Assembly: GCA_964618165.1 (NCBI GenBank)
Contig: CAZTWW010000001.1
Location: forward strand, 499-64,498
Direction of reading: 5' to 3'
DNA length: 64,000 bases
DNA from: an uncultured Candidatus Saccharibacteria bacterium
Lineage (GTDB): Bacteria; Patescibacteriota; Minisyncoccia; Phycocordibacterales; UBA918
The translations under genes and the position numbers were made by a program. Numbering within the stretch: position 1 is the first letter of the stretch; each line of letters opens with the position of its first letter. The notes under the pieces were generated by a model, which was not told where the DNA came from, did no database searches, and was given only the letters and a program-made list of their open reading frames with translations. Positions 1 to 25,218 of the stretch are shown here, piece by piece.

Positions 1-3000
1 ATCTTATCCATACTGTCAATGGTGCAAACGAGCTCATACTCTGCGGAGTTGGTGCATGTGGTGATGCGCGACTTAAGATTAAGGCTGGCTCAACGTATCA
101 ACCGCTCACAAACAGTACTATTATTAATCTCCAAAATTACGGTCGACTAGCACTTGGTACTTCGACCTTGCGTGTAGCTGGTGCCTGGCAACAGTTAGGT
201 ACGTTTGTGACTGATACATCAACGGTAGTGTTTACCGCTACGTCTACGCCGTATACGCTCCAAAATGCGACTTCGTCGTTCTTCTTCCATAACGTGACTT
301 TTGGTGAGACGAGTGGTACTGCCACCTGGACTATCGATAAACCACTAAGTATCACTGGTACACTCAGCGTGATGCAGGGAACACTGGCGCGGGGTACTTC
401 AACGATGGCTATTGGTGGAAACCTGACGCTTGGTGCTAATGGTTTTGTGACTGGTATCGCGACGACAACATTTAATGGTACAGGCAGTAATACCTGGTCT
501 GATGCCAAGGCGAGTGCTTCAAGTACAAATGTCGGAAATGTCGTTATTGATGGTACGGCAAAAACCATTACGCTTGCAGGGAACGTGGCCGCTGAGTCAG
601 TTACTATCGGTACAGATGATACGCTTAACGCTTCAGGAAGTGGTTTTAACATTAATGTTGTTCGAGCCTGGACTAATAACAATCTTTTTGTTCCGCAGAC
701 TGGTACTGTTACTTTCATTGGGACTTCAACCGGTGTCATTGCTCGTGGCACCTCACCATTCAATAATCTTACCTTTGCGGGTGTTGGAGGAAATTGGTCA
801 TTTAGTACGTCAACTTTGGCGCTCAATGGTACACTCACAATTGCGACCGGTACGGTCACTCTACCGACTGGTACTACCACCATCGCCGGCTCTTTCCTCA
901 ACACTGGCGGGTCATTCGCACATAATAATGGTGAGGTACGTATGACAAGTGCTGTCGGCGGACGTACAATCACTCAACAGGCAGGTGTATTTACTAATGC
1001 CTTCTACGACTTAGTATTTACTGGCGGTGGTACTTGGAGTTATTCAGAAAGCGCAGCTACGACAACCCGTAATATGCTGATTCAGGCTGGTACAGTTACG
1101 CTCCCAAGTGGTCAGCTCACTGTCGGAGGTGAATTTGCAGTAACGGGTTCAGGCGCCTTTGCGCATAACAACGGTGAATTAGTGCTCCTTGTTACACAAA
1201 CCAACACACTGCGTACGAATGGTTCAGCGCTTAATAATGTTCGCACTCGTGGTGTCGGTTCGGGTTCATGGTACGGCTCAGGATGGGGAAGACGACTATC
1301 AATTACTGTACAAAGTTCGCAGGTACCAACCAACCTCTCTGACTTCCCGGTATACGTCAATCTCGCAAATCTCCCTGTTGAATTCTTTAATGGCGTCAAA
1401 GCTGATGGTGGAGATATTCGCATGACGACAAGTGACGGTGTCACTGAGGTGCCAGTAGAAGTTGTGTCGCTTAATACTGGGGCGAGAACTGGTGAATTGC
1501 ACTTTAGAGCTCCTTCGCTATCATCTACGACAAACTCAGTATTCTATATCTACTACAACAATCCAGCTGCTGCGACCAATACTGCTACTTCTACGTTTGG
1601 TCGCGCGAATGTGTGGAGTAATGGTTATGAGGCGGTGTACCACTTGGATACCAATCCTGCTTCTGCGATGCTTGACAGTACCCGCAATGCACGTAACCTG
1701 ACGCAGCTTGGTGGCATGAACAGCAGTGATGTGGTGGCTGGAGCAGTTGGAAATGGTATTGATTTTGACGGCGTTGATGATCGTCTTACTAACGCTGGCT
1801 TCGCCTGGCCAAATGCCTCTAACACCGTCACTGTGACAGCCTGGAATAATGTGACAGTGGCCGAAACAAAAGCTGCAAACCTCTTTGGATTCAATGAAAG
1901 TGGTGGTCAACGGTTTGCTACGCACGGACCATGGAGTGATTCAGTTTTGTATTGGGACTTTGGTACTGCAGGAGTACCAGGACGCGTGCAGACTGCGTAT
2001 AACTCATATCGCGATAAATGGACTCATGTCGCGCTCACTTCACCCGGTAACGGTGGAGGCAACATGAACATCTACCTCGACGGTGCATTTATTGCTGGCA
2101 GCGCTGCGAGTGATCCAACTGCCACCTTAACCGGATTTTTCCTTGGTAGCTTAGGTGCTGGACAATATCACGACGGTCGTATCGACGAATTCCGTATTGC
2201 CTCAGTTGTTCGCACCGCCGGTTGGATTGCTACTGAAGAGAATAATCAATCAAGCTCAACGGCGTTCTACACCGTGAGTGGAGAGGAGACGCAACGTATT
2301 CGCACGTTTGCTGATACAAATACAACTATCCTCGGCAATGTCGTCCTTGAAAATGGCGGTGATGCTATTTTCCCAAGTGGTGTACTGTCTGTTGGAGGTT
2401 CATTTGATAATAACGCTAACTTCACCTCAAATAATGGAACGGTGCGCTTCAATTCAATCGCTGGTAGTGAAACTATCGCTGCTGGATCATCAACCTTTGC
2501 TACCCTTGAGTTTAATGCGACTAGTGGAGACTTTGCTATTACCGAGCATGCAACAGCGACGGTAGCGGTTAATCTTGTGAATGCAGCAAGCTTTACACTC
2601 AGTAGCGGACTCTCGCTCACAGCGAGTGGCACCTTTACTCAGGTTATGTCTGGTGCAAGTACTACTTGGACTGGTTCGACGCTCCGTATCCTTGGTGCTG
2701 ATCAGACAATTCACGCTAAGACATTTGGTGGCGATGTCTACGGTACACTTGAGACCAACGGTGACACGGATGTGGCGATGTGGAACAGTAGTGCTACGAG
2801 CTATGTGACCGGTAGTACCTCATCTATCTATTCTCAAGATCATGCTGGCGTAGATGGAGACCTTAATATCTATGGTAATTATGTCCGGTCTACCGGTACT
2901 GAACACTGGTCGTGGGAGACTGACTTTGATGGTGTCTCGCTCGGCGTTGGTGCTCGTCAAGTCGATGTTCGTATTGCGACTGGTTCAACTATTGGATTTG

Positions 3001-6000
3001 TAAATGCTTCGTGGTCAATCCAAGGTACAACCTCAGCTACCACGACTGTTGCCAGTATTGCTGGAGCCTTTAGCGTGTCAGCTACTAATACTACCGTGAC
3101 CGGTCGATTCTTCAGCTTTGCCAATACGGATGCAAGTGGACTCCGACTCGTTTCATCAAGTACGGTGAGTGTGCTTGATGACGGTTTCTTCACAGTTGCT
3201 CCTGGTCAGACTGGTATTACGATGGATGGTACGACGGTCGGTACTAATCCAGCCAGACAGTTCAACCGCATTGGCTTTGCCACGACCACAGCCGGGGCTG
3301 CATCAAACGTCACCTTTACTGGTACGTCTACCACATTTGTGTGGTTCAGAAATGGTTCTGGTAATCTTTACGGAGAGGCGTTTGATGCTGGTGACTTGAA
3401 TCCGGGAGCCATTCGATTCGATGATAGTTCGTACCTCATCACGGTTTCTGGTCGTGTGCTTACCAATAATGGAAGTGGGGTACAAGGTGCACCAGTCTGT
3501 AACGGCACTACCCCAAATGTTCGTATTGTGGTTAACAATGGTTCGTTTACTGCTTCAACATCATGTAATGCTACGACGGGTGCGTATACATTTAACAACG
3601 TTGCATTCGTTGGTGATCCTGTGATCTCGGTATACCTCAATACCAATGGTGGCGTGCAGGGGAGTGTGGTGACAAAGACACCAACCGCCAACATCACAAA
3701 CCTCGATCTCTACACGAATCAGGTAATGATGCGACATGAGGGGGTCGTACCAATCGCAATTGCAGATCTTGTACAGTTTAATAATGCCTCTGACACTGAT
3801 ATGGGCTTTGTGGCAACGACGTCTCCAACAACAACACTGACGGTGTCTCCAGCACGTGGTTTGTTCATCTGGGCAAGTAGCACCTTCACGCCGGGTGGTC
3901 CAGTCACGCTCGCGGGTAATGCATCGACCAGTGCCTTTGAAGGATCACTCACGCTTGCTACTTCATCTCGCTTTATTGCTGAAGGCACGCAAACTCATAC
4001 CTTGGCTGGTCGCCTGGTGCTTGGTAGTAATGCCTCTATAACCGCTGCCTCCTCTACCTTTGTCTTTAATGCAACGACTACAGGCAAGAGTATCACCGGT
4101 TCAACAACTATAAACCTCCATAATGCATCCTTTACCGGGGTTGGTGGTGCCTGGAATATTACTGCACCGATTGTATTTACTGGTGACATGACGGTTGCAA
4201 CTGGTACCGTGACTGGTACAAGTAATCTGACCCTCACCAATGGTCAGCTTACCGGTAATGGAACACTTTCACTCGGTGGAGGTACAACTACTATTGCTCG
4301 CACTAATACACTTGGCGGTACGACACCTTGGACATTTGCGAATCTCGTCCTCGGCGATGGTTTAACGGTGGGTACAACCACCCGTGCTGCCAGCGCCACG
4401 ACGACGATTAGTGGACGCTTGACCATAGCAAATGCTCATACCCTCGCTGCTACGAGTGAAGCGTACGACTTTACTGGTACCGGTACGGTATTCCAAGTAA
4501 CTGGCACTTGGCAGCCAGGTTCAAGTCTCGTCCGCTACAGTGGAGCGAATGCTAATGTGCTCGGTACGAGCTACTATGACTTGTCTATCGGTGCGCTGGT
4601 AGGAAGTTCTACATTCACTGGTACAGGCTCTGGTATCCTCGTTGGTCGCAATCTCACCGTTGGTAACGGTACCGCGAGTAGTACCTTTAACGTGACGACA
4701 AGCGACCCAGTCGTAACCGTTCTTGGTGATGTTCTCATACAAAGTTCCTCAACATTGAGTGCGAGTGATATTGCGACCACTACAATTGCCGGTAGCTATG
4801 ACAACAACGGTCGATTCTTCGGTAATGGTGGCTTGGTGACCTTTACGGGTAGTGGATCACATACCATTGCTGCAGGCAGTTCGAGCTTGAGTCGTGTCAT
4901 CGTTGACGGTACTGGCTCGTTTACGCTGCCTGAGTCTGCTACAACAACCGTCAGTCTCATTCTCCAAAATCACAGTCTCTTTACGGTGGCAACCGGCACA
5001 ACACTCGCGGTGGCTGGCACTTTTGAGAACCGCCTTGGTGGTAGTGCCACTGTCTGGTCAGGTGCACTCTTTGCGCATGGTGGAGGCTCACTTACTATCA
5101 ATCAAAAGACTACGAGTGATGTGTACAGTACCTTGCGTGTTGCCAGTACGACTCGCGTGCGTATGTGGAATAGTACGAGTACCGTATATGATGCACAAGG
5201 CGGTATCTACTCACAAGATCATGCGGGTATTGATGGAGCGTTACGTATCTACGGTAACTTTAATGAAACCAGTGCTGCCGATCATTGGAGTTTTGAAACT
5301 GACTTCGATGGTACAACTCTTGGCACTTCTACTCGTCCAGTAACCGTAGCGTTTGCAAGCAATGCAACAGCTACCTGGAGTGGCGGTAGTCTCAGTGTTA
5401 TTGGAAGCACAAGTGCCTCTACAACCTTACAAAATCAAGGTTCCGGTACGTACCGGTTGGTGATTGGTGGCACTGCTACTGTTAACTTCAACCGGGTCGT
5501 TATCCGTGACACTACAGCTGCTGGTATCACCTTCACTGGTACTCCGACCGTGACCGATTTCTCACGTACTGACCATCTCATCAGAATCAATAGTGGTACT
5601 GCATTGACCGTAGGTGGTACGGTTATCAATGCGAACGAAGCGAAAAACTTTACGAATAATGTGTTTGCGCCTGATACCGGTGTCATTGGTGCAACGAACG
5701 TTACTGCTACTGGTACTGCAGTTAGTTCTTGGAGATTTACTAATCATACCGGCTCGATATCAGGTGAAGCATTTGATGTTGATCCAGCGGGTGATCCTGG
5801 ATACATCGTTTGGGATGATTCAGCGGCGCTGATTACCGTCAGTGGTAATGTGTACAGTGATGAGGGTGTTACCGTCTCACCAGTATGTGACGGGGTGACA
5901 AATAATATCGTTCTTCGGGTTGCTGGTTTGACTTCATATAGTACCAGTTGTAACGCGAGTACCGGTGCCTACAGCATCAGTAATGTTGCCTACAGTCCAC

Positions 6001-9000
6001 TTGATAGTCTCGTGGTCTATATTGATGGCGCGACACCAAAGGGTGCTCATGTCACGAAGTCACCAATTTCTTCAATCTCTAATCTCCACATTTACCACAG
6101 TCGAGTGATTGTCCGTCATGAAAATACCGACCCAATAACGATTGCTGATATGGCAGTATGGGATAGTAGTGATGATACAGATATTCCGTTCACTGCCGTA
6201 GATGCTGGTACTGATACATTGACGCTACCAGCTGACCGTAAGCTGATGGTGTGGACCAGTAAGACCTTTGCACCAAATGGTAATGTGACGATTTCTGGTG
6301 GCGGGGCAGGGGATGCGGTTGATGGTTCGTTTGAAGCCCTCGCTAATGCCCGTTTCCGTGGCCAAAACAGTGAGACACATACGATTGCCGGAAGCTTCGT
6401 CTTTGGTGCTGGTGCTGTCTATGAGGCTAATCAAGCAACCACAACATTCACCTCAACGGCCGCCGGACGTACTATTGATGTCAACGAGTCAGCGTTCGGG
6501 AATATCGCATTCACGGGTACTGGTTCATGGTCTATGAGTGATGCCACGCTCACGACACAACGCTCATTTACCCAGTCAGCAGGAACCGTAACGTTCGGTA
6601 GCGGCACGACCACAATCGGCGCGTCGTTCAATGCAACCGGCGGAACATTTACCATGAATGGAAGTGCACTTGTCTTTACGAGTACGAGTACCGGTAATAT
6701 TGTTCGGTTTGATGACTCAACTGTTCCAACCACCACGTTCTCGGGTGCGAGCGGTGCTTGGAGTATGACTGACACGAACGCGACGACAACCGGTAGCTTC
6801 TTTATCACCAACACCGGTGCGGTGACACTACCGAGTGGTAATCTTGGTGTGGGCGGTTCATTTGTGAACGCGAGTGGTACCGTGACGCATAATACGAGTG
6901 ACATCTATTTCACTGGTGCCGGGACACTTAGTTTGCGTGCTAATGGCTCCGACCTGTTTGCGGTTCGGAAGATTGGGGCTGGCACACTAACGATGACTGA
7001 GGGTAGTGTAACGCTCCGCGATGATCTGGCGGTAGCTTCGGGTACACTCATTGCTGCTACTAATACCTTGGCTGTCGGTGGTTCATTTACGGTAACGAAC
7101 GGCTTCTTTAATAATGCGACCGGTACGGTTCTTATGAATGCCACGACTGTTGGTAAGACGATTCAGGCCAGTACCAGTCCGTTCTATAACCTTAACTTCG
7201 GTAGCGCTTCAGGTGGCTGGACTTGGCAGAGTAATGCAACGGTTACGAATAATATGACAATTACCGCTGCAAACACCTTTACGAAAGAGTCTGGTACAAC
7301 CCTTACCGTTGGTGGTGTCTTTACCAATCTTGTTGGTGGTGCGCAAACGACCTGGAGTACTACGACGCTCCGGCTTATCGCCACCGATCCGTACACCATA
7401 AATACCAAGTCTGCTGGTGGTGATGTGTATGCTACCGTTGATATTCCATCGGCCGATATTCGAGTCTGGAATAGTAGCTTCAGTACCACTACAACGGGTC
7501 TCGGTGCATCACTCTATTCACAAGACAATGCAGCGGTTGATGGTCAGTTGGCTATCTATGGTGAGTTTACCGTTGCGACAACTACTGAACACTGGAGCTT
7601 TGCAACTGATTTTGACGGCACTGCCCTCACTGGCCCAAGTCAGCGCGCCGTATCAGTACTTTTCGCCTCAAGTGCTACCACGTCGGTTATCTCCGGTACC
7701 CTCAATGTAATTGGTGGTCCGTCGGCGACAACAACTATTGGCATTATTGGTACTGGTACCCACGCCCTCGCCGTATCAGGAGGTACCTTTAACGCCCAGT
7801 TCTACCGCTTCAATGCCCTTAATGCTACCGGCCTTTCATTCACTGGTTCTCCAACGATTACTACGTTGAGTAACGGTTTCTATCAGCTTGCGGTGAATGG
7901 CGGTACGCTTGTCCGCGTCACCGATACGGCACTTACCGCCAATGCATCAAAGATATTTACGGCAGTAGGATTTAATGCGACGAGTGGCTTGAGTGGTGTA
8001 AACGTAGCCCTCGTGGGTAGTACCAGTAATGCGTGGCGATTTAGTGGCTCGTACGGCACGCTCAGTGGTGAGGCGTTTGACGATGATGGTGTTGATGCCT
8101 GCGGCGCGATTCGCTTTGATAATAGTCTTTGTCTCCTTACCTCACAAACAGCTTTCCGTTGGCGCAGTGATGATGGGCTTGAAGGGGCGCCAAGTAGTGA
8201 ATGGTTTGATGCCTCATTTGACTACCGACAGCGTGTCCGTGTCCAAAACACAACCGGTACATCATTTAGCACAACCACACTGAAGATAGTTGTTCCGTAT
8301 GATAGTGCGATGCAATCGGACTTTGATGATATTCGCTTTACACTCGGCAATGGCTTGACCTTGGCTGATCACTGGCGAGAGCGGTTTACCGCGAGTACCG
8401 AAGCTACATTCTGGGTGGAGGTACCAAGCTTTGCGGCCTCATCTTACACGACTGTGTTTATGTATTACGGTAGTTCAACTGCAAGTTCAGCCAGCAATGC
8501 GAGTGCAAGCTTCGTCTTCGTGGATGACTTTGAAGACAATAACATTACAGAATATTCGGGCGATACTTCATTATTCCAGACTGATACGGCACCGGTATTT
8601 GCTGGTACGTATGCGCTTGAGGCATCAAATAAAACTGGTCGTACGACTGATGGTATTTACCGAACTGGTTCACTCGTCTCTCAGGGTCAAATCGTCCGCT
8701 ATATGCAGTACGTTGATACCACATCAGGTAGTACTGACGAGGGTTGTGTCATGTTTGGTGTTCAGGGTAACCAAAACCAGAATTATGGTGTGTGTCTTGA
8801 ACTCTTTGGAGTTGACCGTATCGCATTATCACGTGACGTTGACGATAATGATGTGTCAGGTACTGTCCTGGCGAGTACCACAGTGTCGTACACTACAGGT
8901 TGGTATGAGGTACAAATAGATTGGCAAACTAATAATCGTATTGATGTCTATCTCTATAATCCTTCAGGCGCATTGGTGGCTACTACCTCGGCCACCGACA

Positions 9001-10406
9001 GTAATTACACGAGCGGTGGTGTTGGGTATACGTTCTGGATCCAGAACGGTGCTTGGGATAGCTACACCGTGCGTGGTCGGGCGCCAGTGACACCGCCTGT
9101 CTTCTTTGGGGCCAAGCAGACGGATGGTGGCGCCACTTGGTTAGCAGCTCAAAATGCATCAGGTAGTGGTCTTCCTGGTTCAACTCGTCGACTCCGTATC
9201 GGTATCGAGAACTCAGGTCTCACGGTAACGGGTCAGACCTACCGTCTCCAGTATGCAGCGAAGGGTAGTGCGCTCACGTGTGAAGCTGTCAGTAGTGGTA
9301 GTTACACAGCGGTGCCAAATCAGGCGTCGTGTGGCTCGTCACCGGTTTGTATGCAGACATCAACGAATGTGACTGATGGTGGAGCGACTACAGACCTATT
9401 ATCTGGCATGAATGGGATGTACAGTGCTGGACAGACAGTTGAGAGTCCATCAAACATGACTGGTGGTATTACTATCAATCAAAATTACTACACCGAACTT
9501 GAATATGTAATTACTGCTACCGTGAATGCTTCTGACGCGTACTGCTTTAGAGTCGTGAACGACACTACACCGCTTGACTTCTATGCTGAAGTAGCAGAGC
9601 TTGGTCTAACCTTCGATCCAACTTTTGGACCAGTTGCCCTTAACAATGGTATGCCGATTGTATTAACTCCTGGAGCAACCACGACCGTGTATGCTACCGG
9701 TACAGTCACAGACTTCAATGGTGTGGCAGATCTCGTGGCGGGTACTTCAACCATCTACCGCAGCGGTGCTGGTGCGGCATGTACACCTGATAACAATAAT
9801 TGTTATGTTTCAACAGTCTCAAATGGTGGTTGTAACTTCACAAATTGTAGTGGTTCAACATGTACGCTTGAATGTCGAGCGGATATCTTCTTCCATGCTG
9901 ATCCAACCGACGACGGGGCGTATGCTGGGGAAGAGTGGCTTGCGTACCTTGAGGTGAATGACGTGAGTGGTGGGTATGACTTCGCGTCAGCGCTTGGAGT
10001 GGAACTACTCACATTGCGAGCCTTGACGGTCGATAATGGGATTAACTACGGTGCGCTTGAGCCAGCTAACAACACTGGTGCTTACAACGCAACGACAACG
10101 ATTGCTAACACTGGTAATGTAGCATTTGACATTGAAGTGGCTGGTACTGACCTCAGTGACGGTAGTTCATCGGTCATTCCTGCTACGGAGCAACGATTTG
10201 CAACTTCAACGTTCAACTATGCAGCCTGTGTCAGTTGTGCATCACTTTCAAGTACAACGCCGGTTGAACTAGCGGTCAACCTCGCAAAGCCAACAGCGCC
10301 TTCACCATTACCAGAAACGCCAATCTATTGGGGTATCGCGGTACCGCTCGGTATACGTAGTGCACCGCACTCTGGTATCAACGTCTTTACTCCAATTTCG
10401 CCGTAA
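1..10406 (+). CDS. Giant Thr/Ser-rich cell-surface protein, 5'-partial (at least 3,412 aa). It has beta-helix-like repeats, two DUF2341-like + LamG-like modules, CnaB/CarboxypepD_reg-like modules and a C-terminal WxL-like domain.
   Basis: The frame stays open from nt 3 to the listed start at 168 (a TTG) with no in-frame stop, so the gene continues upstream of the window. Residues are dominated by T/S/G/N with repeated 'NNGE...VGG.F' beta-helix-like units. A DUF2341-like segment 'GWGRRLSITVQSS..DFPVYVNL..GGDIRMT..VFYIYYNNPAA' is followed by a LamG-like segment ending 'GRIDEFRIASVVRTAGW'. The C-terminus is shared with three other proteins in the window. Stop TAA at 10404-10406. Confidence 0.9.
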   Translation, partial: LIHTVNGANELILCGVGACGDARLKIKAGSTYQPLTNSTIINLQNYGRLALGTSTLRVAGAWQQLGTFVTDTSTVVFTATSTPYTLQNATSSFFFHNVTFGETSGTATWTIDKPLSITGTLSVMQGTLARGTSTMAIGGNLTLGANGFVTGIATTTFNGTGSNTWSDAKASASSTNVGNVVIDGTAKTITLAGNVAAESVTIGTDDTLNASGSGFNINVVRAWTNNNLFVPQTGTVTFIGTSTGVIARGTSPFNNLTFAGVGGNWSFSTSTLALNGTLTIATGTVTLPTGTTTIAGSFLNTGGSFAHNNGEVRMTSAVGGRTITQQAGVFTNAFYDLVFTGGGTWSYSESAATTTRNMLIQAGTVTLPSGQLTVGGEFAVTGSGAFAHNNGELVLLVTQTNTLRTNGSALNNVRTRGVGSGSWYGSGWGRRLSITVQSSQVPTNLSDFPVYVNLANLPVEFFNGVKADGGDIRMTTSDGVTEVPVEVVSLNTGARTGELHFRAPSLSSTTNSVFYIYYNNPAAATNTATSTFGRANVWSNGYEAVYHLDTNPASAMLDSTRNARNLTQLGGMNSSDVVAGAVGNGIDFDGVDDRLTNAGFAWPNASNTVTVTAWNNVTVAETKAANLFGFNESGGQRFATHGPWSDSVLYWDFGTAGVPGRVQTAYNSYRDKWTHVALTSPGNGGGNMNIYLDGAFIAGSAASDPTATLTGFFLGSLGAGQYHDGRIDEFRIASVVRTAGWIATEENNQSSSTAFYTVSGEETQRIRTFADTNTTILGNVVLENGGDAIFPSGVLSVGGSFDNNANFTSNNGTVRFNSIAGSETIAAGSSTFATLEFNATSGDFAITEHATATVAVNLVNAASFTLSSGLSLTASGTFTQVMSGASTTWTGSTLRILGADQTIHAKTFGGDVYGTLETNGDTDVAMWNSSATSYVTGSTSSIYSQDHAGVDGDLNIYGNYVRSTGTEHWSWETDFDGVSLGVGARQVDVRIATGSTIGFVNASWSIQGTTSATTTVASIAGAFSVSATNTTVTGRFFSFANTDASGLRLVSSSTVSVLDDGFFTVAPGQTGITMDGTTVGTNPARQFNRIGFATTTAGAASNVTFTGTSTTFVWFRNGSGNLYGEAFDAGDLNPGAIRFDDSSYLITVSGRVLTNNGSGVQGAPVCNGTTPNVRIVVNNGSFTASTSCNATTGAYTFNNVAFVGDPVISVYLNTNGGVQGSVVTKTPTANITNLDLYTNQVMMRHEGVVPIAIADLVQFNNASDTDMGFVATTSPTTTLTVSPARGLFIWASSTFTPGGPVTLAGNASTSAFEGSLTLATSSRFIAEGTQTHTLAGRLVLGSNASITAASSTFVFNATTTGKSITGSTTINLHNASFTGVGGAWNITAPIVFTGDMTVATGTVTGTSNLTLTNGQLTGNGTLSLGGGTTTIARTNTLGGTTPWTFANLVLGDGLTVGTTTRAASATTTISGRLTIANAHTLAATSEAYDFTGTGTVFQVTGTWQPGSSLVRYSGANANVLGTSYYDLSIGALVGSSTFTGTGSGILVGRNLTVGNGTASSTFNVTTSDPVVTVLGDVLIQSSSTLSASDIATTTIAGSYDNNGRFFGNGGLVTFTGSGSHTIAAGSSSLSRVIVDGTGSFTLPESATTTVSLILQNHSLFTVATGTTLAVAGTFENRLGGSATVWSGALFAHGGGSLTINQKTTSDVYSTLRVASTTRVRMWNSTSTVYDAQGGIYSQDHAGIDGALRIYGNFNETSAADHWSFETDFDGTTLGTSTRPVTVAFASNATATWSGGSLSVIGSTSASTTLQNQGSGTYRLVIGGTATVNFNRVVIRDTTAAGITFTGTPTVTDFSRTDHLIRINSGTALTVGGTVINANEAKNFTNNVFAPDTGVIGATNVTATGTAVSSWRFTNHTGSISGEAFDVDPAGDPGYIVWDDSAALITVSGNVYSDEGVTVSPVCDGVTNNIVLRVAGLTSYSTSCNASTGAYSISNVAYSPLDSLVVYIDGATPKGAHVTKSPISSISNLHIYHSRVIVRHENTDPITIADMAVWDSSDDTDIPFTAVDAGTDTLTLPADRKLMVWTSKTFAPNGNVTISGGGAGDAVDGSFEALANARFRGQNSETHTIAGSFVFGAGAVYEANQATTTFTSTAAGRTIDVNESAFGNIAFTGTGSWSMSDATLTTQRSFTQSAGTVTFGSGTTTIGASFNATGGTFTMNGSALVFTSTSTGNIVRFDDSTVPTTTFSGASGAWSMTDTNATTTGSFFITNTGAVTLPSGNLGVGGSFVNASGTVTHNTSDIYFTGAGTLSLRANGSDLFAVRKIGAGTLTMTEGSVTLRDDLAVASGTLIAATNTLAVGGSFTVTNGFFNNATGTVLMNATTVGKTIQASTSPFYNLNFGSASGGWTWQSNATVTNNMTITAANTFTKESGTTLTVGGVFTNLVGGAQTTWSTTTLRLIATDPYTINTKSAGGDVYATVDIPSADIRVWNSSFSTTTTGLGASLYSQDNAAVDGQLAIYGEFTVATTTEHWSFATDFDGTALTGPSQRAVSVLFASSATTSVISGTLNVIGGPSATTTIGIIGTGTHALAVSGGTFNAQFYRFNALNATGLSFTGSPTITTLSNGFYQLAVNGGTLVRVTDTALTANASKIFTAVGFNATSGLSGVNVALVGSTSNAWRFSGSYGTLSGEAFDDDGVDACGAIRFDNSLCLLTSQTAFRWRSDDGLEGAPSSEWFDASFDYRQRVRVQNTTGTSFSTTTLKIVVPYDSAMQSDFDDIRFTLGNGLTLADHWRERFTASTEATFWVEVPSFAASSYTTVFMYYGSSTASSASNASASFVFVDDFEDNNITEYSGDTSLFQTDTAPVFAGTYALEASNKTGRTTDGIYRTGSLVSQGQIVRYMQYVDTTSGSTDEGCVMFGVQGNQNQNYGVCLELFGVDRIALSRDVDDNDVSGTVLASTTVSYTTGWYEVQIDWQTNNRIDVYLYNPSGALVATTSATDSNYTSGGVGYTFWIQNGAWDSYTVRGRAPVTPPVFFGAKQTDGGATWLAAQNASGSGLPGSTRRLRIGIENSGLTVTGQTYRLQYAAKGSALTCEAVSSGSYTAVPNQASCGSSPVCMQTSTNVTDGGATTDLLSGMNGMYSAGQTVESPSNMTGGITINQNYYTELEYVITATVNASDAYCFRVVNDTTPLDFYAEVAELGLTFDPTFGPVALNNGMPIVLTPGATTTVYATGTVTDFNGVADLVAGTSTIYRSGAGAACTPDNNNCYVSTVSNGGCNFTNCSGSTCTLECRADIFFHADPTDDGAYAGEEWLAYLEVNDVSGGYDFASALGVELLTLRALTVDNGINYGALEPANNTGAYNATTTIANTGNVAFDIEVAGTDLSDGSSSVIPATEQRFATSTFNYAACVSCASLSSTTPVELAVNLAKPTAPSPLPETPIYWGIAVPLGIRSAPHSGINVFTPISP
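1264..2270 (+). other. DUF2341-like domain followed by LamG/concanavalin A-like lectin domain (copy 1) inside the giant protein
   Basis: The translated motif is W.GSGWGRRLSI....DFPVYVNL....DGGDIRMT....YIYYNNP, then LDSTRNARNLTQ...GIDFDGVDDRLT...IYLDG...DGRIDEFRIAS. The order matches the known DUF2341 - LamG_3 architecture. Confidence 0.55.
2830..7620 (+). repeat. Three tandem super-repeats of about 2.35 kb (about 790 aa) within the giant ORF
   Basis: The near-identical motif 'HAG[VI]DG.L.IYGN...EHWS[WF]ETDFDG' recurs at nt ~2833, ~5218 and ~7510. CnaB-like segments 'GEAFD..D...I.[FW]DDS..LITVSG.V....GV...PVC.G.T.N' recur at ~3360, ~5760 and ~8070. Confidence 0.7.
8150..9100 (+). other. Second DUF2341-like + LamG-like module inside the giant protein
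   Basis: WRSDDG...WFDASFDYRQRVRVQNTTG...DFDDIRFT...TVFMYYGSS, then FVDDFEDNN...VFAGTYALEA...WYEVQIDW (a jelly-roll-like segment). Confidence 0.45.
9960..10403 (+). other. Shared WxL-like C-terminal domain (copy in the giant protein)
   Basis: The segment ...INYGALEPANNTG...NTGNVAFDIEVAG...IPATEQRFATSTFNYAA...ETPIYWGIAVPLG...SGINVFTPISP aligns with the C-termini of the ORFs ending at 16585, 20845 and 32970. Confidence 0.6.
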
Positions 10407-10415: not shown

Positions 10416-11903
10416 ATGATTACGTTACTTATGCGACATGTACTTGTGTTATTGCTGTTCGTTCTTGGTGGACTGACACTGACTTCGGTCGTATTTGCAC
10501 AATCTGATGACACGCGTGCACCAGAAATTACGGGAGTGACCATCGCCTCAACCACCGAGACTTCAGTGACGATCACCTGGAAAACCAACGAAAACGCTGA
10601 TTCAGCAGTCAATTACAGCCTTGACCCAAATCTCGGCGTGGTACGTGTGCCAGTGGCAAATCGTACGACCCATTCCGTCACATTGGATAACCTCGAGCCG
10701 GGAAGGACGTACTACTTCCGTGTCGTCTCAGCTGATGCCGAGGGTAACCAAGGAATCTCAGCAGATTATAAAATTGATCTTGAAAGTGAAGCGACGAGCG
10801 AAAATAGTGGGGAAGGTACTGGTGTCGGACCAGGTGAGGTGCCACAAACACCCCAAGAAATCATTGAGCAAATTCAAGAAATTAATAATCCGCAACAACT
10901 TCAAGAGATTCTTAATGAGACCGTAAAGGCGATTCAGGGTATTACTGAGGATTTGACCATTGTCGGTCCGCCAACCGTTGTGCCGGAGACAACCTCAGCC
11001 CTGGTCTCATGGAGTACTGACCGACCAGCTAGTTCAGAGGTGCGATTCTCTAAAACTAATGGTTTTGATGGTACTAATTATGAATTTTCTCAATCATCCA
11101 CCGACGGTTCAGTTACTGACCACGAAATTCGTCTCATCGGCCTTGAGCCATTTACTGAGTATAGTTTTCAGGTACGTTCAACAGATGAGTATCAGATAAC
11201 TGGTGAAAGTCGTAACTTTACCTTCCGCACTAAAGCATCGCTTCCTGACATTCGAAATCTCCGTATCGTGAAGGTGGAGGAAAACGCAGCGACACTTGCC
11301 TGGGAAACGACGGTACCAGCCAAAGCGCTCATCGAATATCAGGATCTGACCACTGGTGGTCAAAACTCAGTCGGCCGCCCAACGCTCGCTACAACACACC
11401 AAATGCGCCTCTCAGACCTGACGCTAGGAACACGCTATGTTGCGTTTGTAATTGCTGAAAACTCTGGCGGGGACCGTGTTCGGAGTCAGCCGGTTCAATT
11501 CATTACGGTCCGTGATAATGCACCGCCACTTATCTCAAACGTGACAAACGAATCAACTATTTTCCCTGGTGGTGAATCGCGTATTCAGACAATTGTTGAG
11601 TGGAATACCGACGAACCAGCATCTTGTACGATGACCTATCGTGAAGGTGTAGCTGGTGGTGTTGATCCGGTTGTGCTTGAGAAAGAGGTGGTTGAGTACA
11701 ACACGAATCATGTTGAGGTAATTATCGACTTTGCTCCCGCGACTGTATACCAGTTTTGGCTTAATTGTACTGATGAAGCCGGCAATACTGTCCAGTCTGA
11801 GAACTTCGTACTCTTTACCCCAATTCAAGAAAAAAACATTATCGACTTGATCTTGGAGAACTTTGAGTCGACGTTTGGTTGGGTTAAAAACATCACAAAC
11901 TAG
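10416..11903 (+). CDS. Secreted protein with four fibronectin type III-like repeats (495 aa)
   Basis: N-terminal signal peptide LLLFVLGGLTLTSVVFA. Repeated units of the form 'P.I..V.....T.T.A.I.W.T...A.S.V.Y......Y.......H.V.L..L.P.T.Y.FRV.S.D..GN'. An acidic Q/E-rich linker lies between repeats 2 and 3. Confidence 0.8.
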   Translation: MITLLMRHVLVLLLFVLGGLTLTSVVFAQSDDTRAPEITGVTIASTTETSVTITWKTNENADSAVNYSLDPNLGVVRVPVANRTTHSVTLDNLEPGRTYYFRVVSADAEGNQGISADYKIDLESEATSENSGEGTGVGPGEVPQTPQEIIEQIQEINNPQQLQEILNETVKAIQGITEDLTIVGPPTVVPETTSALVSWSTDRPASSEVRFSKTNGFDGTNYEFSQSSTDGSVTDHEIRLIGLEPFTEYSFQVRSTDEYQITGESRNFTFRTKASLPDIRNLRIVKVEENAATLAWETTVPAKALIEYQDLTTGGQNSVGRPTLATTHQMRLSDLTLGTRYVAFVIAENSGGDRVRSQPVQFITVRDNAPPLISNVTNESTIFPGGESRIQTIVEWNTDEPASCTMTYREGVAGGVDPVVLEKEVVEYNTNHVEVIIDFAPATVYQFWLNCTDEAGNTVQSENFVLFTPIQEKNIIDLILENFESTFGWVKNITN

Positions 11904-11922
11904 AACTATTTCACTGACACAT

Positions 11923-11959
11923 TTCTTTGTTGTGCTTTAAAAATTTTGTTCACCGTACA
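11923..11959 (+). repeat. Conserved post-gene element TTCTTTGTTGT-N-GTTCACCGTACA (copy 1)
   Basis: An element of about 38 nt lies 20 nt after the stop of the Fn3 gene. A near-identical copy is at 18764-18802, after the dockerin gene. Confidence 0.6.
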
Positions 11960-12116
11960 ACATGTACGACTTACAAAATTTTTCTTGCATGCCTCGAACT
12001 GCATCCAGTGTAAAAGTTCTAGATGGTAGTTGTCAAAGGTGTAAACACAAGCATGGCGTAGTTTTGTATGTGGACTACACTCCAAAGTATTCACGAAGTA
12101 ATGCCATAATACAGAC

Positions 12117-13439
12117 ATGGCAAAGCCTCTCATTGTGTGCCGTGATTTGTCGATTATTTATAATAAAGGCAAATCCAATGAATTTCGTGCGCTCCAAAAC
12201 GTAAACACCGACATCTATGAAGGTGAGTATATTATTCTGTTTGGTGCATCTGGGTCGGGCAAGTCAACACTCATGTATTCGATTCAAGGATCACTCCCGC
12301 CGGGCGAGGGGACGCTCCTTATTCGTGGTGACGATATTTACTCGTATCCACCGAGTGAACGAGTGTACTTCCAGCGGTACGTGATGGGTATTATCTTCCA
12401 ATCCTTTAACCTGATTGGCTCACTCTCGGTGCTCGATAATGTCGCGCTCCCGATGATTTTTTGTAATGCTGACAAACAAACGCGCGATCGTCGCGCACAG
12501 TCACTCCTTGATCGCTTCGGCGTGGGGCATGTCTCTCATAAGATCCCAGCGATGCTCTCCGGTGGCCAGCAACAGCGTGTCTCGGTAGCACGCTCTATGG
12601 TGAATGATCCGAAGATTCTTCTTGCAGACGAGCCAACCGGTAACCTTGACTCCGTTTCTACCCAGCAGGTGATGGACAAAATTGACGAAATTAACACGTT
12701 CGATAGACGGACTATTATTATGGTATCGCACAACGCGGCTCATTTGTCATACGCACATCGCGTATATTACCTCAAAGATGGGGCGGTCGTGCGTGAAGTG
12801 GTGAATCCGCAACGCAAGCAGATTAAACCAGTCCGTGAAGGTGAGACCATTGTAACCGAGTTAGAGCAGCTCGCGCGCCTGTTTCCGTACGACTCAGTTG
12901 ATACGCTGCGTATCAAGAGTATGGTGAATTACTTAACTCAAGATTATACCTTTGACCAAATTCAGCGCCTTGAGCGTGCCATTGGCTTCTTTATCAAGGG
13001 TAAGATTGACCGTGATGCATTTATAAACGCGCTCGTCCTTCCGCTCGAGCGCGGGGGAGTAGAAATAGACGAAAATACCGCGCGTGAGATGGCGAAGCGC
13101 ACTGAGCGCATGATTCTCCAGTCTGATGACATCAGACGTTTTCGAGCAAAAAAAGACAATGACGGGGTCTTCTTTAGTCAGCATAAGCTCGCTGAGCGAC
13201 TTCGTGATCACCTCCTTGAGGTATATCGCCTCAAGCTCTCAAAAGAGCAAGATAATAATCTTGTAGAACTGGTTGCAGACCGTGTGACGGGTGTGACTGA
13301 TAGTGCGGAGTTTAATGTCCGACTCATGAACGGGGTTCGCAGTGGCGGCTTGGCTCTTACCGAAGGCGAAGCAGATGATATGACAAGATACTTTGAAAAG
13401 CTGATTGCCCAAGGGGTAGACGTCAGTTATAAAAATTAG
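12117..13439 (+). CDS. ABC transporter ATP-binding protein (MacB/LolD-type NBD) with a C-terminal extension of about 200 aa of unknown function
   Basis: Walker [11 protein letters not shown]-loop, ABC signature [14 protein letters not shown], Walker B LLADEPT and H-loop VSHN are all present. The ABC domain is about 230 aa of the 440 aa total. Confidence 0.9.
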
Positions 13440-13442
13440 TGT

Positions 13443-14651
13443 ATGCGTGTCCAGGATCTTGCTCAGCTTTCAACTCGAATGTTTAAGACGAACCCGCTTC
13501 GTACCTGGCTTACTATTCTTGGTATGGGAGTCGGGACGGGTGCGGTAGTTATTCTCGTCGGGCTTGGATTCGGGCTTCAGCAGATCATTCTTGAGCAGAT
13601 TGTGTTCGGTGAGACACTCCTCTCACTTGGTGTATCAGCCACCGGCGCGCAAAATCTCCGCCTTACTACCGAGACCGTCACGCAATTTGAAGAAATGCCA
13701 GAGGTTCTCGACGCTGCTCCGCTGGCACGCTTCCCGGCCCTCGTAACCTATAAGGGGCTGACTGGTAACGTGTTTATTCAAGGAGTAGAACCACCATACC
13801 TTCGGTATGCTGGTGTTTCCGCGACTGCTGGTGAGGTATTTACCGATGTTGATGCAGCTGATACCAGCAGTGTAATGCTGTCGCCGGCGGTATTAAAGCT
13901 CTTCGGGATTGAAGACGCAGAGAGTTTTGTGGGGGAGAAGGTGTCATTTCGTATACTCATTCCGGCAAATGATGGTACCGGCAACAACAACGAGGTGATT
14001 ATCGATAAAGAGTATACCGTTCGGGGTATCACGAAGGAGGAAGGTGTCCTTAATGCCATGATGATGCTCCCTGAACTCCGTAATTATGTTGGTATTGAGG
14101 AATTTGAGCGTATTCAGGTCCGTGTCGATACGAATGAAAATCTACCGATTGTCGAGACAAAGCTTATTGAGGAAGGGTACCGCGTGACTGCGCTCTCAAA
14201 GACTGTTGAACAGGCGTCAAAGATTTTCCAGGGTATTCAAGCAGTTTTGGCGACATTTGGTGGTATTGCCTTAGTGGTGTCGGCGATTGGTATGTTTAAC
14301 ACGATGACGGTGACACTCCTTGAGCGTACCAAAGAGATCGGTATTATGCGTACTATTGGTGCTTCTCCGAACGATGTAAAGTATCTCTTCGTGTCTGAGT
14401 CGGTAGTGGTAGGCTTTTTGGGTGGGGTGAGTGGGATAGTTATGGGGGTAGGACTTGGACTCACTATCAATCTTTTTTTGAATATTGTGGCGGGGCAGTT
14501 CGGTGGGCAAGCGGTAAAGCTCTTTTCATTCCCACTTGGGTTCTTGCTCTTCATTGCCCTCTTCTCAGCGGCGGTGGGGTACTTGACCGGTATCTTCCCA
14601 GCTCGTCGGGCCGCCAAGCTCAACCCGCTTGATGCGATTCGCTACGAATAA
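13443..14651 (+). CDS. ABC transporter permease, FtsX/MacB-like (402 aa)
   Basis: Starts 4 nt after the ATPase stop. It has an N-terminal TM helix, an extracytoplasmic domain of about 230 aa and three C-terminal TM helices, which is the FtsX/MacB topology. Confidence 0.8.
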   Translation: MRVQDLAQLSTRMFKTNPLRTWLTILGMGVGTGAVVILVGLGFGLQQIILEQIVFGETLLSLGVSATGAQNLRLTTETVTQFEEMPEVLDAAPLARFPALVTYKGLTGNVFIQGVEPPYLRYAGVSATAGEVFTDVDAADTSSVMLSPAVLKLFGIEDAESFVGEKVSFRILIPANDGTGNNNEVIIDKEYTVRGITKEEGVLNAMMMLPELRNYVGIEEFERIQVRVDTNENLPIVETKLIEEGYRVTALSKTVEQASKIFQGIQAVLATFGGIALVVSAIGMFNTMTVTLLERTKEIGIMRTIGASPNDVKYLFVSESVVVGFLGGVSGIVMGVGLGLTINLFLNIVAGQFGGQAVKLFSFPLGFLLFIALFSAAVGYLTGIFPARRAAKLNPLDAIRYE

Positions 14652-14710: not shown

Positions 14711-16585
14711 ATGTTGTACAACAAAAATAATCTACCGCGGTATGTAGAGACCGCCGGTAAAATCACCATTTTATCAGCCTTAACTGGAGTATTGATTTTC
14801 ACCTTCATCTTTATTCTTAACATCGGTAAAACCGAGCTCCAGAAAGCCGAAGCGACATCAACCGCGACGACTACTCTCACTGTTCTTAACACGCCCCCAC
14901 AGTGGGAGATTGGTGAAGAAGGTCGTGAAGAGTTTGGTTCTTCCACGACCACACCAACTAACTCAGGTGATGTTGTCTCTTGGATTGGTCGAGCCACTGA
15001 CTCAAACGGCGCACCTTACTTCCTTATCATTTGTAGTAATAGTGCGACACCAACAGCTCAGCAGTCCACGACAACACTCGGAACCGCAGCGCCGATTTGT
15101 TCTGGCGGCGGTATCCGCTGGGCCGTTTCAACTTCTACCGTGAGTGGTGCACAGGCGCGTGCTGCTACAACCACGTTTGAAGGTGGTAACTTCCAGGAAT
15201 CTAATACCTGGTACGCCTGGGTGTGTGACGACGATCCGGTGAGTCCAAAGTGTAGTACAACATTCTCTCAGGGAACCAACGCCACGAACTCAAGTCCTTT
15301 TAACGTAAATCGTAGACCAATCTTCACCACTTTTGGTAATAATGGACCTGTTAATCCTGGCGGTACCATTACCTTCAATGCTACGGCAACCGATCCAGAC
15401 ATTGTAGACTTTGAAGATAATATTTACCTTGTTGTCTGTAGCCTTCCTTCATACAGTACAACCACGAACTCATGTGGTGCAGGAGACTTCATTGCCTCAA
15501 GTTCTCTCGGCGCCCTTCAAAATCCTACCGCTGCAACGAGTCTCGTAGCTATCATTCAGGACACGAGTTACAACGCCTATGGTTATGTCTATGACGAGCA
15601 TGGACACGAGGCACTGCTTGGAGCCCAGGGTACCAATACACCGTTTGTAGTTAATAACGTAGCACCAACAGTTTCGGGAGGTACTATTACACTTAATGGC
15701 GGTCTTGATATTACCCTCACAACACCTGGGGCGGAAACAACTGGCTTTACGCTCGAGTTCACTATCGCTGATGCAAATAGTTGTGATGCGGTCGGTGGTG
15801 GGCCTGCGGATGAGATTATTCGTCCGGTCGTCTCGATATTTAGAAGCTCACTAGGTACAACAACCTGTAACGGAGCTTTAGCTTACGATCCGAATCGCTG
15901 TTATGTAAGTGATGTTCCTACTTCTGTCTGGAATCTCGCATGTACAGCCTCTACCACCTCGTGTACCGGAGCGACTGATGATACGATTCAATATAATTGT
16001 ACGTTCCCACTTTGGTTCCTCGCTGATCCTACTGATGCAAGTTCACCATTTTCAGCTGAAGACTGGCGTGCTGGTGTAGCTGGAGTTGATGACGACCTTT
16101 CGACCGGTACAATGGCAACGTCGACGAGCGGACGAGAGCTCTTCAGTTTTGTAGCAATTGACTTGTTAACGCAAAACATTGCCTATACTGACCTTGAGCC
16201 TGGAACTGAGATGGCTAACTTGACTTCGTCTTCAACGCTTCGTGTGCTCGGTAACACCGGTATCAACCAGCTCCTCGGCGGAGATTCAATGTGTGACACC
16301 TACAGCATCAGTAATCCATGTCCTGTTTCGGGTACGTCAACTATTCCTCAAAGTGAGCAACGCTACGCAACTACAGCAGTAGCGTACGCAGCTGGTACAC
16401 CGCTTCAGCCTACTTCTACACCAGCACTGTTTGACATCCGTATCCCAAAACCAACTTCGACTTCAAGTCCGACACAGGATGAAACGTTCTGGGGTATCCG
16501 AGTTCCAGGTTCAATTACACGCGCGGGAGTATATACAGGTCGAAACACCTTTATGGGTGCGGTATCACCATCAGGAAGCTGGTAA
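14711..16585 (+). CDS. Secreted Thr/Ser-rich surface protein (624 aa) with the shared WxL-like C-terminal domain
   Basis: SD AAGAGG precedes the ATG. N-terminal signal anchor ILSALTGVLIFTFIFIL. The C-terminus '...IPQSEQRYATTAVAYAAG...ETFWGIRVPGS...GVYTGRNTFMGAVSP' is homologous to the C-termini of the 3,412-aa, 385-aa and 2,048-aa proteins. Confidence 0.8.
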   Translation: MLYNKNNLPRYVETAGKITILSALTGVLIFTFIFILNIGKTELQKAEATSTATTTLTVLNTPPQWEIGEEGREEFGSSTTTPTNSGDVVSWIGRATDSNGAPYFLIICSNSATPTAQQSTTTLGTAAPICSGGGIRWAVSTSTVSGAQARAATTTFEGGNFQESNTWYAWVCDDDPVSPKCSTTFSQGTNATNSSPFNVNRRPIFTTFGNNGPVNPGGTITFNATATDPDIVDFEDNIYLVVCSLPSYSTTTNSCGAGDFIASSSLGALQNPTAATSLVAIIQDTSYNAYGYVYDEHGHEALLGAQGTNTPFVVNNVAPTVSGGTITLNGGLDITLTTPGAETTGFTLEFTIADANSCDAVGGGPADEIIRPVVSIFRSSLGTTTCNGALAYDPNRCYVSDVPTSVWNLACTASTTSCTGATDDTIQYNCTFPLWFLADPTDASSPFSAEDWRAGVAGVDDDLSTGTMATSTSGRELFSFVAIDLLTQNIAYTDLEPGTEMANLTSSSTLRVLGNTGINQLLGGDSMCDTYSISNPCPVSGTSTIPQSEQRYATTAVAYAAGTPLQPTSTPALFDIRIPKPTSTSSPTQDETFWGIRVPGSITRAGVYTGRNTFMGAVSPSGSW

Positions 16586-16605: not shown

Positions 16606-16648
16606 TGCAATGACCACCGTTATCCAAACGGTGGTCATTGCTTTTTAT
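16606..16648 (+). terminator. Intrinsic terminator after the 624-aa gene
   Basis: Hairpin GCAATGACCACCGT-tatccaa-ACGGTGGTCATTGC followed by TTTTTAT. Confidence 0.7.
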
Positions 16649-20881: not shown

Positions 20882-20910
20882 TTCCCCCCACCACGGGGGA
20901 TTTTTGTTTG
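20882..20910 (+). terminator. Intrinsic terminator after the 385-aa gene
   Basis: Hairpin TCCCCCCA-cca-CGGGGGA followed by TTTTTGTTTG. Confidence 0.8.
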
Positions 20911-20955
20911 TGTAAAACAAGTCAATTCTTGTGCCTGTGCTTGTATACTAATCAT

Positions 20956-23690: not shown

Positions 23691-23691
23691 C

Positions 23692-25130: not shown

Positions 25131-25168
25131 TTAGTGTTGATAACCAATCGGGAGTCTTGACAGTACAC

Positions 25169-25177
25169 TGGTATTAT
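25169..25177 (+). promoter_or_regulatory. Extended -10 element TGGTATTAT upstream of the 25219 gene
   Basis: TGnTATTAT lies 41 nt upstream of the ATG, with TTGACA immediately upstream but too close (9 nt) to serve as its -35. Confidence 0.3.
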
Positions 25178-25218
25178 ATGTGTACTGGAACTGTTGTATC
25201 ACCATCAGTCCAATTACG

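Follow-up and report, generated by a model that had tools for sequence, protein, structure and literature searches.

The window (the whole stretch of 64,000 nucleotides that was analysed) contains a cluster of about 35 kb, conserved in about 45 Paceibacteria-class genomes, that encodes large surface proteins, a pilin-like protein and several membrane-anchored proteins. Four of its products end in a conserved C-terminal module, and these modules belong to two families, termed here type 1 and type 2. The relevant features, all on the forward strand, are the following.

3..10406, +: giant secreted protein that ends in a type-1 domain and contains DUF2341; no in-frame stop from base 3
9627..9971, +: Ig-like domain with a C...C...ADPTD...W motif, preceding the tail of the giant protein; the domain also occurs in the 624-aa protein (BLASTP alignment of about 290 aa)
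9972..10403, +: C-terminal domain, of type 1, in the giant protein, the feature under study (HMM envelope; predicted Ig-like β-sandwich of about 145 aa)
10416..14651, +: FN3-repeat protein, ABC ATPase and MacB/FtsX-type permease, between the two type-1 genes (Pfam)
14711..16585, +: 624-aa protein with an N-terminal TM/signal segment, Ig-like domains and a type-1 domain at 16103-16582 (BLASTP, HMM envelope)
14861..14899, +: segment ATTTLTVLNTPP at the mature N-terminus of the 624-aa protein, a donor-strand candidate (conservation)
16607..16641, +: terminator-like hairpin with a 15-bp stem and a T run, just 3' of the 624-aa gene
16678..17631, +: c317, with a signal peptide, two putative β-sandwich regions and a C-terminal TM helix; candidate chaperone/anchor for type-1 domains
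17636..18742, +: dockerin-bearing 368-aa gene between c317 and the pilin gene (Dockerin_1 and DUF4215 matches)
19688..20845, +: 385-aa Pam-like pilin with a signal peptide, N-terminal β-sandwich, linker (20243-20281) and type-2 domain (20282-20842; NF058581 E 2.5e-6)
20883..20900, +: terminator-like hairpin 3' of the pilin gene
20908..26757, +: genes downstream of the pilin for 355-aa TM-anchored, cohesin/Big_13 TM-anchored, 227-aa, dockerin-bearing 252-aa and 525-aa proteins (Pfam)
26812..32970, +: surface protein of 2,052 aa whose tail, 32422-32967, is a type-2 domain (NF058581 E 7e-6, HMM envelope, similarity to the pilin tail by BLASTP with E 8e-13)
32960..33958, +: c332, WxLIP/PamC-D-like, with a TM helix at the C-terminus (292 aa aligned to c543 at 26% identity, E 8e-25)
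33933..35564, +: c543, with a WxLIP_PGBD domain, TM helices and a LytR_C domain (Pfam)

Bases 9960-10403, where the domain had been noticed, are the final 148 codons of the ORF that ends at 10406. This ORF, referred to as the 3,412-aa protein, is open to base 3 and is therefore cut by the window edge, with its N-terminus outside the window, and its size is a lower bound of at least 3,467 open codons within the window. Relatives of 6,589-7,440 aa, some of them reaching 6,916-7,440 aa, have N-terminal signal or TM segments, and its DUF2341 domain (PF10102) is matched with E 3.5e-19. The protein previously given as 2,048 aa counts 2,052 aa from the first ATG.

A preliminary description held that the four tails are copies of one C-terminal domain, with the same blocks in conserved order and spacing. 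All the peptide blocks that it quoted are present in the four ORFs in the sequence given, and each protein does end in a conserved module, but no sequence or profile test backs a single domain common to all four. The 3,412-aa and 624-aa tails form type 1 (BLASTP E=1e-15, 30% identity; Smith-Waterman score 143 against 35±7 for shuffles, z=15.6, reached by 0/300 shuffles), and their similarity runs about 290 aa further upstream, into the preceding Ig-like domain (BLASTP), whose ADPTD motif is kept in the family consensus. The 385-aa and 2,052-aa tails form type 2 (BLASTP E=8e-13, 31% identity across 188 aa; Smith-Waterman 165, z=18.5) and are at least as similar to each other, so that the first pair, rightly seen as related, loses its supposed place as the closest. 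All four comparisons between the families are at chance (Smith-Waterman z -0.5 to +0.3, the observed score being reached by 104-207 of 300 shuffles; BLASTP E=0.83), and the HMM of neither family matches the other. Aligned with hhalign, the expanded families reach a probability of 2% and a score of 21.0, against 19.4±2.2 for a block-shuffled null that attains it in 13 of 60 cases, and adding AlphaFold secondary structure brings no gain (probability 0.3%). The claim of common block order and spacing holds for both within-pair alignments and fails in the four-way block alignment, the comparison chosen beforehand to decide it. The blocks map to equivalent elements of two predicted Ig-like β-sandwiches, in both of which the predicted order is a first strand, an I-x-[YF]-G-x-L turn, an N-x-G strand pair and the last two strands. 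The four tails are two sequence families with similar predicted folds and without detectable sequence relation to each other.

The type-2 family is distantly related to a subunit of a known pilus. In Ca. Mycosynbacter amalyticus the Pam pilus is built from the pilins PamA, PamB and PamT, of which PamA/B consist of an N-terminal, roughly nine-strand β-sandwich, a single linker strand and, at the C-terminus, a domain of truncated-Ig type, and Pam is reported to be prevalent chiefly in Saccharimonadia and Microgenomatia (Troman et al., bioRxiv 2026, doi 10.64898/2026.03.03.709456). The 385-aa protein, for which 239 homologues and 268 confirmed matches in a species-representative genome collection were found, is a Pam-like pilin: it is likewise CPR-specific and Sec-exported, and its AlphaFold model (pLDDT 90.1) predicts the PamA/B-type layout of signal peptide, N-terminal β-sandwich, linker strand and C-terminal domain, with a helix at residues 7-26, about ten strands at 41-185, an unstructured linker at 186-198 and the C-terminal domain at 199-385. 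This layout is absent from the 3,412-, 624- and 2,052-aa proteins. In the linker V189, V191, A193, V195 and T197 are fully or almost fully invariant, in an alternating hydrophobic pattern. The NCBIfam model NF058581 ("CPR_Pam_pilin_C"; curated cut-off 55 bits) gives 27.6 bits for the 385-aa protein and 26.1 bits for the 2,052-aa tail, which aligns to its positions 3-148 of 148; scores are thus about half of the cut-off, which neither reaches. The model matches 40/42 type-2 members at E<=0.01 (best E 6.9e-10), all of them under the cut-off, and type-2 tails fit it with E 1e-6 to 7e-10. On this distant homology, type 2 is a diverged branch of the C-terminal domain of Pam pilins, here also carried, unlike in Pam, by a protein of 2,052 aa.

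The flagged domain behaves differently: none of 46 type-1 members matches NF058581 at E<=1, so that distant homology to the Pam pilin C-terminal domain is not supported for it. Type 1 is an unnamed family of domains of about 145-160 aa (776 representative clusters at E<=1e-3) that stands nearly always at the C-terminus, on proteins of very different size. Among the best 150 of these 776 clusters the carriers range from 150 to 7,440 aa, and with two or three exceptions the match coincides with the C-terminus or comes within a few residues of it; in P0241 and P0247 the domain is internal.

These results also bear on the reading closest to the preliminary description, namely that all four tails are one homologous domain diverged past detection, with type 1 as simply a second branch of the C-terminal domain of Pam pilins. 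In favour of such common ancestry beyond detection are the place of both types in one conserved cluster beside demonstrably homologous partners, the matching succession of secondary-structure elements in the two AlphaFold models, the I-x-[YF]-G-x-L turn and the N-x-G strand motif that both types have, and an hhalign alignment that is collinear over 146 columns, though insignificant. Such motifs are common among β-sandwich families, however, and the Smith-Waterman z values of about 0, an hhalign score no better than that of block-shuffled columns, the lack of an HMM cross-match and the response to NF058581 (0/46 against 40/42 members) make a single domain unlikely.

What the two types have in common is their genomic setting, in which both adjoin homologous membrane-anchored WxLIP/PamC-D-like proteins. 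These proteins (c317, c332 and c543) have signal peptides and, like PamC/D of the Pam pilus, C-terminal TM segments, and they are mutually homologous (c317 to c332/c543: hhalign 98-99%, E 1e-14 to 1e-16). As membrane-anchored, presumably two-domain proteins they are candidate counterparts of the operon-encoded PapD/FimC-like chaperones with a C-terminal TM helix that belong to the Pam system; no match to the NCBIfam Pam chaperone models was found. PF06030 (WxLIP_PGBD) matches 13/35 members of this partner family at E<=0.01, with c543 just above the cut-off (27.4 bits against 27.3, E 3.7e-6; LytR_C E 1e-9), c332 matching weakly and c317 not reaching it; DUF3324 was undetected by Pfam in the WxLIP-like genes. 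The order of the cluster is kept across related loci: the FN3-repeat, ABC ATPase and permease genes in 40-45/80, the c317 gene directly 3' of a 624-aa orthologue in 46/80, the 368-aa dockerin gene in 63/80 and the genes at 20908..26757 in 48-69/80. In 44/80 related genomes a 624-aa-type gene is found 3-5 kb upstream of the pilin gene (44 orthologues in the same position), and beyond it, still further upstream, a second type-1 protein can often be seen to end. In both the 624-aa protein and c317, conservation is highest at the mature N-terminus: ATTTLTVLNTPP is the most conserved block of 10 residues in the former (0.91, 45 sequences), exceeding its C-terminal domain, and FGITPPYVRNTSLTRNSTYEQQILLVRG in the latter has a conservation of 0.93-0.95.

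Beyond the observed homology groups, Pam-model match, predicted folds, conserved cluster and partner homology, we infer strand exchange, partner pairing and an adhesin role. Both domain types would be docking modules that act by β-strand complementation: after Sec export, a membrane-anchored partner with two Ig domains (c317 in the case of type 1, c332/c543 in that of type 2) would hold the domain, which would then accept a strand from another subunit, the candidate donors being the V-x-V-x-A-x-V-x-T linker of the pilin and the mature N-terminus ATTTLTVLNTPP of the 624-aa protein. In this way a Pam-like filament, or its membrane anchor, would come to carry large, variable adhesin bodies. The balance tips slightly in favour of this docking explanation as a whole. 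A parallel is offered by the tip adhesins FimH, PapG and CsuE and the subunits CsuA/B, PapA and FimA of chaperone-usher pili, in which the pilin domain accepts a donor strand. The type-1 proteins may be compared to these adhesins in having a variable body followed by a C-terminal Ig-like domain, but they lack Pfam fimbrial matches, their candidate chaperones are membrane-anchored, the cargo reaches up to 7,000 aa, and neither an usher gene nor a usher or PapD Pfam match was found among the cluster ORFs searched. The cluster also differs from Pam in its lineage (Paceibacteria/Kaiserbacteria/Nomurabacteria) and in containing cohesin/dockerin proteins and a MacB-type ABC system, and ATP synthase genes were not noticed in an unsystematic look at the window ORFs.

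Another competitor of the docking explanation comes from Firmicute WxL clusters, which encode a small protein, large proteins with a C-terminal WxL domain and a DUF916-DUF3324-TM (WxLIP) protein, a strand of which is predicted to insert into the WxL domain (PMC10599100). Type 1 could by analogy be a non-covalent envelope anchor that forms a stable complex with the WxLIP-like c317, and possibly with peptidoglycan, and displays the giant protein directly, with no filament. The layout here mirrors that of WxL clusters (PMC10599100), with small and large surface proteins that have a common C-terminal domain and an adjacent WxLIP-like gene (c543, and PF06030 matches in the partner family), and both the position of the c317 gene directly 3' of the 624-aa gene and the extreme conservation of the c317 N-terminal segment would fit such a complex. 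The tails themselves speak against it, since PF13731 (WxL) matches none of 46 type-1 or 42 type-2 members at E<=1 and the dual W-x-L motif is missing, type 1 having a single conserved W-G-I and type 2 no W-x-L in the required positions; c317 falls below PF06030, and a Pam-like pilin with a candidate donor linker is present, unlike in WxL clusters. This kind of anchoring is also judged unlikely, at about the same level as a single diverged domain.

Less probable still, type 1 might be an ordinary, complete β-sandwich, a glycan-binding or spacer module resembling the N-terminal domain of GH123, that does not dock and has become terminal by domain shuffling. Its only sequence hint is a weak PF22680 (Glyco_hydro_123_N_2) match in 3/46 members (E 0.037), which is insignificant, and the β-sandwich of GH123 β-N-acetylgalactosaminidases (PDB 5fqe, 8k2f, 5l7r) has 10-15% identity, is the N-terminal part of an enzyme and offers no genomic or functional parallel; the near-constant C-terminal position in the 776-cluster family, judged on its best 150 clusters, and the conserved pairing with c317 and the pilin cluster make this improbable. 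Finally, a C-terminal sorting or export signal with T9SS-like logic, read by the MacB/FtsX-type ABC system, would account for a nearly always terminal domain on cargo of any size and for the ABC ATPase and permease genes kept between giant and 624-aa genes in 43-45/80 loci, but it is very improbable, as full-length relatives have N-terminal Sec-type signals or TM segments, Pfam and NCBIfam sorting-domain models are unmatched, CPR cells, generally described as lacking an outer membrane, have none to cross, and no MacB-type system is known to read folded C-terminal domains.

CPR bacteria are regarded as living attached to host cells, and a mode of attachment is known for no more than a minority of them. 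The first description of the Pam pilus dates from 2026, and the window adds a Paceibacteria-class cluster that combines a Pam-like pilin, giant proteins with pilin-type or pilin-like ends and membrane-anchored partners. If the docking explanation holds, it would explain how adhesins of several thousand residues are displayed, assign a testable role to type 1, as yet an unnamed family of at least 776 clusters, and suggest an evolutionary bridge to the Firmicute WxL/WxLIP system, a link of which there is no mention in the Pam paper (doi 10.64898/2026.03.03.709456). In a more far-reaching and rather doubtful version, type 1 would be a second, undescribed strand-complementation docking system of CPR bacteria, with c317 as chaperone/anchor, ATTTLTVLNTPP as donor and, as its load, adhesins that reach about 7,000 residues. 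Taken with type 2 and the WxLIP_PGBD matches, it would then unite chaperone-usher pili, CPR Pam pili and Firmicute WxL clusters, all as forms of a single ancient principle of surface assembly by Ig-strand exchange in monoderm-type envelopes.

Three further observations bear on the docking explanation, the first two against it and the third for it. Some type-1 proteins elsewhere begin with a cytoplasmic receiver-like domain, and so not all of them are free tip subunits. In the 624-aa protein the N-terminal region is conserved also ahead of the TM segment, and the N-terminus may be kept as a membrane anchor rather than cleaved. The hairpins 3' of the 624-aa and pilin genes would suit abundant subunits.

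The C-terminal regions (tails) of four proteins encoded in the window were named type 1 and type 2, because every test splits them into these two families. The open reading frames concerned are:

168..10406, + strand, giant "3,412-aa" protein with a type-1 tail
14711..16585, + strand, 624-aa protein with a type-1 tail
19688..20845, + strand, 385-aa protein (the pilin gene) with a type-2 tail
26812..32970, + strand, 2,052-aa protein with a type-2 tail

The final 148 codons of the first frame occupy 9960-10403, and its 3,412 aa are a lower bound, since the frame is open, without a stop, back to base 3; relatives reach 6,916-7,440 aa. All peptides quoted for the four frames in the preliminary description were found, in the order claimed there, and the length of 2,048 aa given for the last frame is corrected to 2,052 aa when counted from the first ATG.

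That description had also proposed a single domain common to all four tails, which no test run supports. The 3,412-aa and 624-aa tails, described as closest to each other, are indeed related (BLASTP E=1e-15), with a likeness that spans about 290 aa and also covers an Ig-like domain before the tail, marked by the motif C...C...ADPTD...W, and the 385-aa and 2,052-aa tails match across 188 aa (E=8e-13). Smith-Waterman alignment with 300 shuffles gave z=15.6 and z=18.5, respectively, for these two pairs and z between -0.5 and +0.3 for all four cross-pairs, so that the proposed check by alignment and HMM is positive within the pairs and negative across the families. BLASTP across the families was negative, the HMM of each family matched only its own two copies in a six-frame translation of the window, and no tail copies beyond the four were found by these searches. 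With hhalign, type 1 against type 2 reached a probability of 0.5% for small alignments and 2% for expanded ones (150 and 143 sequences); the score of 21.0 compares with 19.4±2.2 for block-shuffled columns, and 13 of 60 shuffles reached or exceeded it. Reversed and block-shuffled nulls were used, in runs with and without AlphaFold secondary structure, the addition of which left the cross-family result negative. Four-way homology is therefore rejected, BLASTP, Smith-Waterman, HMM cross-search and hhalign all being negative across families; an alternative is a common ancestry of the two types that would be too distant to detect. The blocks had looked parallel because the strands of the type-1 and type-2 domains come in parallel order.

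A search with the 385-aa tail gave 239 homologues, unnamed and without a Pfam domain, from Paceibacterota, Kaiserbacteria and Parcubacteria assemblies, and one alignment unites them with the 32 homologues of the 2,052-aa tail. The NCBIfam model NF058581 ("CPR_Pam_pilin_C") matches the 385-aa protein (E 2.5e-6), the 2,052-aa tail (E 7e-6, model positions 3-148 of 148) and 40 of 42 type-2 family members (best 6.9e-10), all type-2 scores lying well below its curated 55-bit cut-off. The source of this model is the Pam pilus of Ca. Mycosynbacter amalyticus, a system comprising PapD-like chaperones anchored in the membrane (PamC and PamD), a tip subunit consisting of the C-terminal domain only (PamT) and an anchor that is an N-terminal strand donor (PamR) (doi 10.64898/2026.03.03.709456). 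AlphaFold predicts for the 385-aa protein (pLDDT 90.1) a layout that fits the published description of a Pam pilin; the linker, the strand between its two domains, is unstructured in this prediction (186-198), and its residues V189, V191, A193, V195 and T197 are invariant or nearly so. Because of the NF058581 match, the predicted layout and the kept linker residues, the 385-aa protein is a distant Pam-type pilin, and the very large 2,052-aa protein ends in a pilin domain of the same family. Since the Pam system has been published and an NCBIfam model exists, type 2 counts as a new and divergent branch, in a lineage unnamed in the Pam paper (doi 10.64898/2026.03.03.709456), with one version fused to a giant protein. 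After the predicted signal peptide, the mature N-terminus of the 2,052-aa protein (window 26950-26990) begins with AAVVTVDATVSLD, which resembles the pilin linker VVVTAAVDTS, shows moderate conservation (0.68) in 41 orthologues and could act as a donor strand from the N-terminal side.

The type-1 family has no annotation, and the role given to it here is proposed from context. No Pfam or NCBIfam model matched the two window copies or any one of 46 family members, and among 1.84 billion representatives a full HMMER scan detected 776 clusters at E<=1e-3 and 463 at 1e-10. Among the best 150 of the 776 listed, carriers are 150 to 7,440 aa long and the match lies at the C-terminus, or a few residues short of it, in all but two or three; the domain is internal in the carriers P0241 and P0247. 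One named member originates from candidate division WS6. AlphaFold predicts a nine-strand β-sandwich (pLDDT 83, pTM 0.71), a predicted fold consistent with a pilin-like Ig fold without being specific to it. A PDB sequence-profile search with both families gave no match at E<=1, and the Pam structures are therefore either unmatched or absent from the PDB copy searched. Four proteins with type-1 ends (P0254, P0264, P0226 and P0275) start with CheY-like receiver-type sequence, an arrangement that implies N-terminal membrane anchoring, with a signalling domain in the cytoplasm and the docking domain farthest out on the extracellular side.

Gene order was compared in 80 loci, the surroundings of pilin-gene homologues in species-representative genomes. 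A type-1 protein of 614-675 aa is encoded on the same strand 3-5 kb upstream of the pilin gene in 44 of them, and further upstream the end of another type-1 protein can often be seen. The kept order is giant type-1, FN3 protein, ABC ATPase, FtsX/MacB permease, 624-aa type-1, c317, dockerin protein, pilin, TM-anchored 355-aa protein, cohesin protein, 227-aa protein, dockerin protein, 525-aa protein, giant type-2, c332 and c543, and alternative loci have giant type-2, c332, c543, pilin and pilin. The MacB/FtsX-type ABC pair (12117-14651), between two type-1 genes, is kept in 43-45 of the 80 related loci, and cohesin/dockerin proteins (17636-18742, 21972-23690, 24372-25130) are members in 63-69, which suggests that cohesin-dockerin coupling operates beside pilin-type docking. 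No relevant account of this cluster in Parcubacteria was found in the literature.

The membrane-anchored proteins c317, c332 and c543 (317, 332 and 543 aa), candidate chaperones or anchors, have a common plan of signal peptide, β-rich ectodomain and C-terminal TM helix; c332 and c543 are 26% identical, and the c317 family is homologous to both (hhalign 98-99%). The threshold of Pfam WxLIP_PGBD is attained by c543, and 13 of 35 family members match that model, a link between CPR Pam-type and Firmicute WxL clusters that is absent from doi 10.64898/2026.03.03.709456 and PMC10599100. The c543 protein (33933-35564) extends beyond its first TM helix with another TM segment and LytR_C (E 1e-9), an addition not described for PamC and PamD. 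Conservation peaks at the mature N-terminus, ATTTLTVLNTPP, in the 624-aa family (0.91) and at FGITPPYVRNTSLTRNSTYEQQILLVRG in c317 (0.93-0.95). Two expression signals accompany these genes:

16607-16641, strong terminator-like hairpin with a 15-bp stem, directly 3' of the 624-aa gene
20883-20900, strong terminator-like hairpin, directly 3' of the pilin gene

Both hairpins precede chaperone-like and anchor-like genes, a layout that recalls stoichiometry control after major pilin genes. Directly upstream of the pilin gene, about 945 bp (18743-19687) hold no ORF of at least 45 aa and gave no Rfam match; this stretch could act as a long leader, or as regulatory sequence, for a subunit made in abundance.

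Taken together, these findings reveal a surface-structure cluster that is conserved in Paceibacteria and centred on a Pam-like pilin. Two families of terminal Ig-like domains belong to it, and the putative partners of the two families are membrane-anchored proteins homologous to each other. We infer strand-complementation docking as the most economical mechanism: the terminal domain would first be held by the membrane-anchored partner and then be completed by a strand from the pilin linker or an N-terminal extension, and variable, lectin-bearing giant proteins (DUF2341) would thereby be fixed to a filament or anchor. A rival explanation, by analogy, is a static WxL-like anchor (PMC10599100); WxL-domain membership of the tails was rejected, neither family matching PF13731, and the likeness is kept as an analogy only. 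The terminal domain might otherwise be a sorting signal recognised by the ABC system, or a plain glycan-binding sandwich.

Just downstream of the cluster, 36087-36653 encodes a membrane-anchored Redoxin/AhpC-TSA family protein that could help the Cys-rich surface proteins to form disulfide bonds; the 624-type and 2,052-type tails contain conserved Cys pairs. Rfam and tRNA scans of the window gave only one tRNA-Ala (51564-51639). A low-GC island at 54001-56550 (0.395 versus about 0.49) encodes a 619-aa Schlafen-group-3/DUF2075-type helicase (PF09848, E 9e-92), which may be an acquired defence gene.
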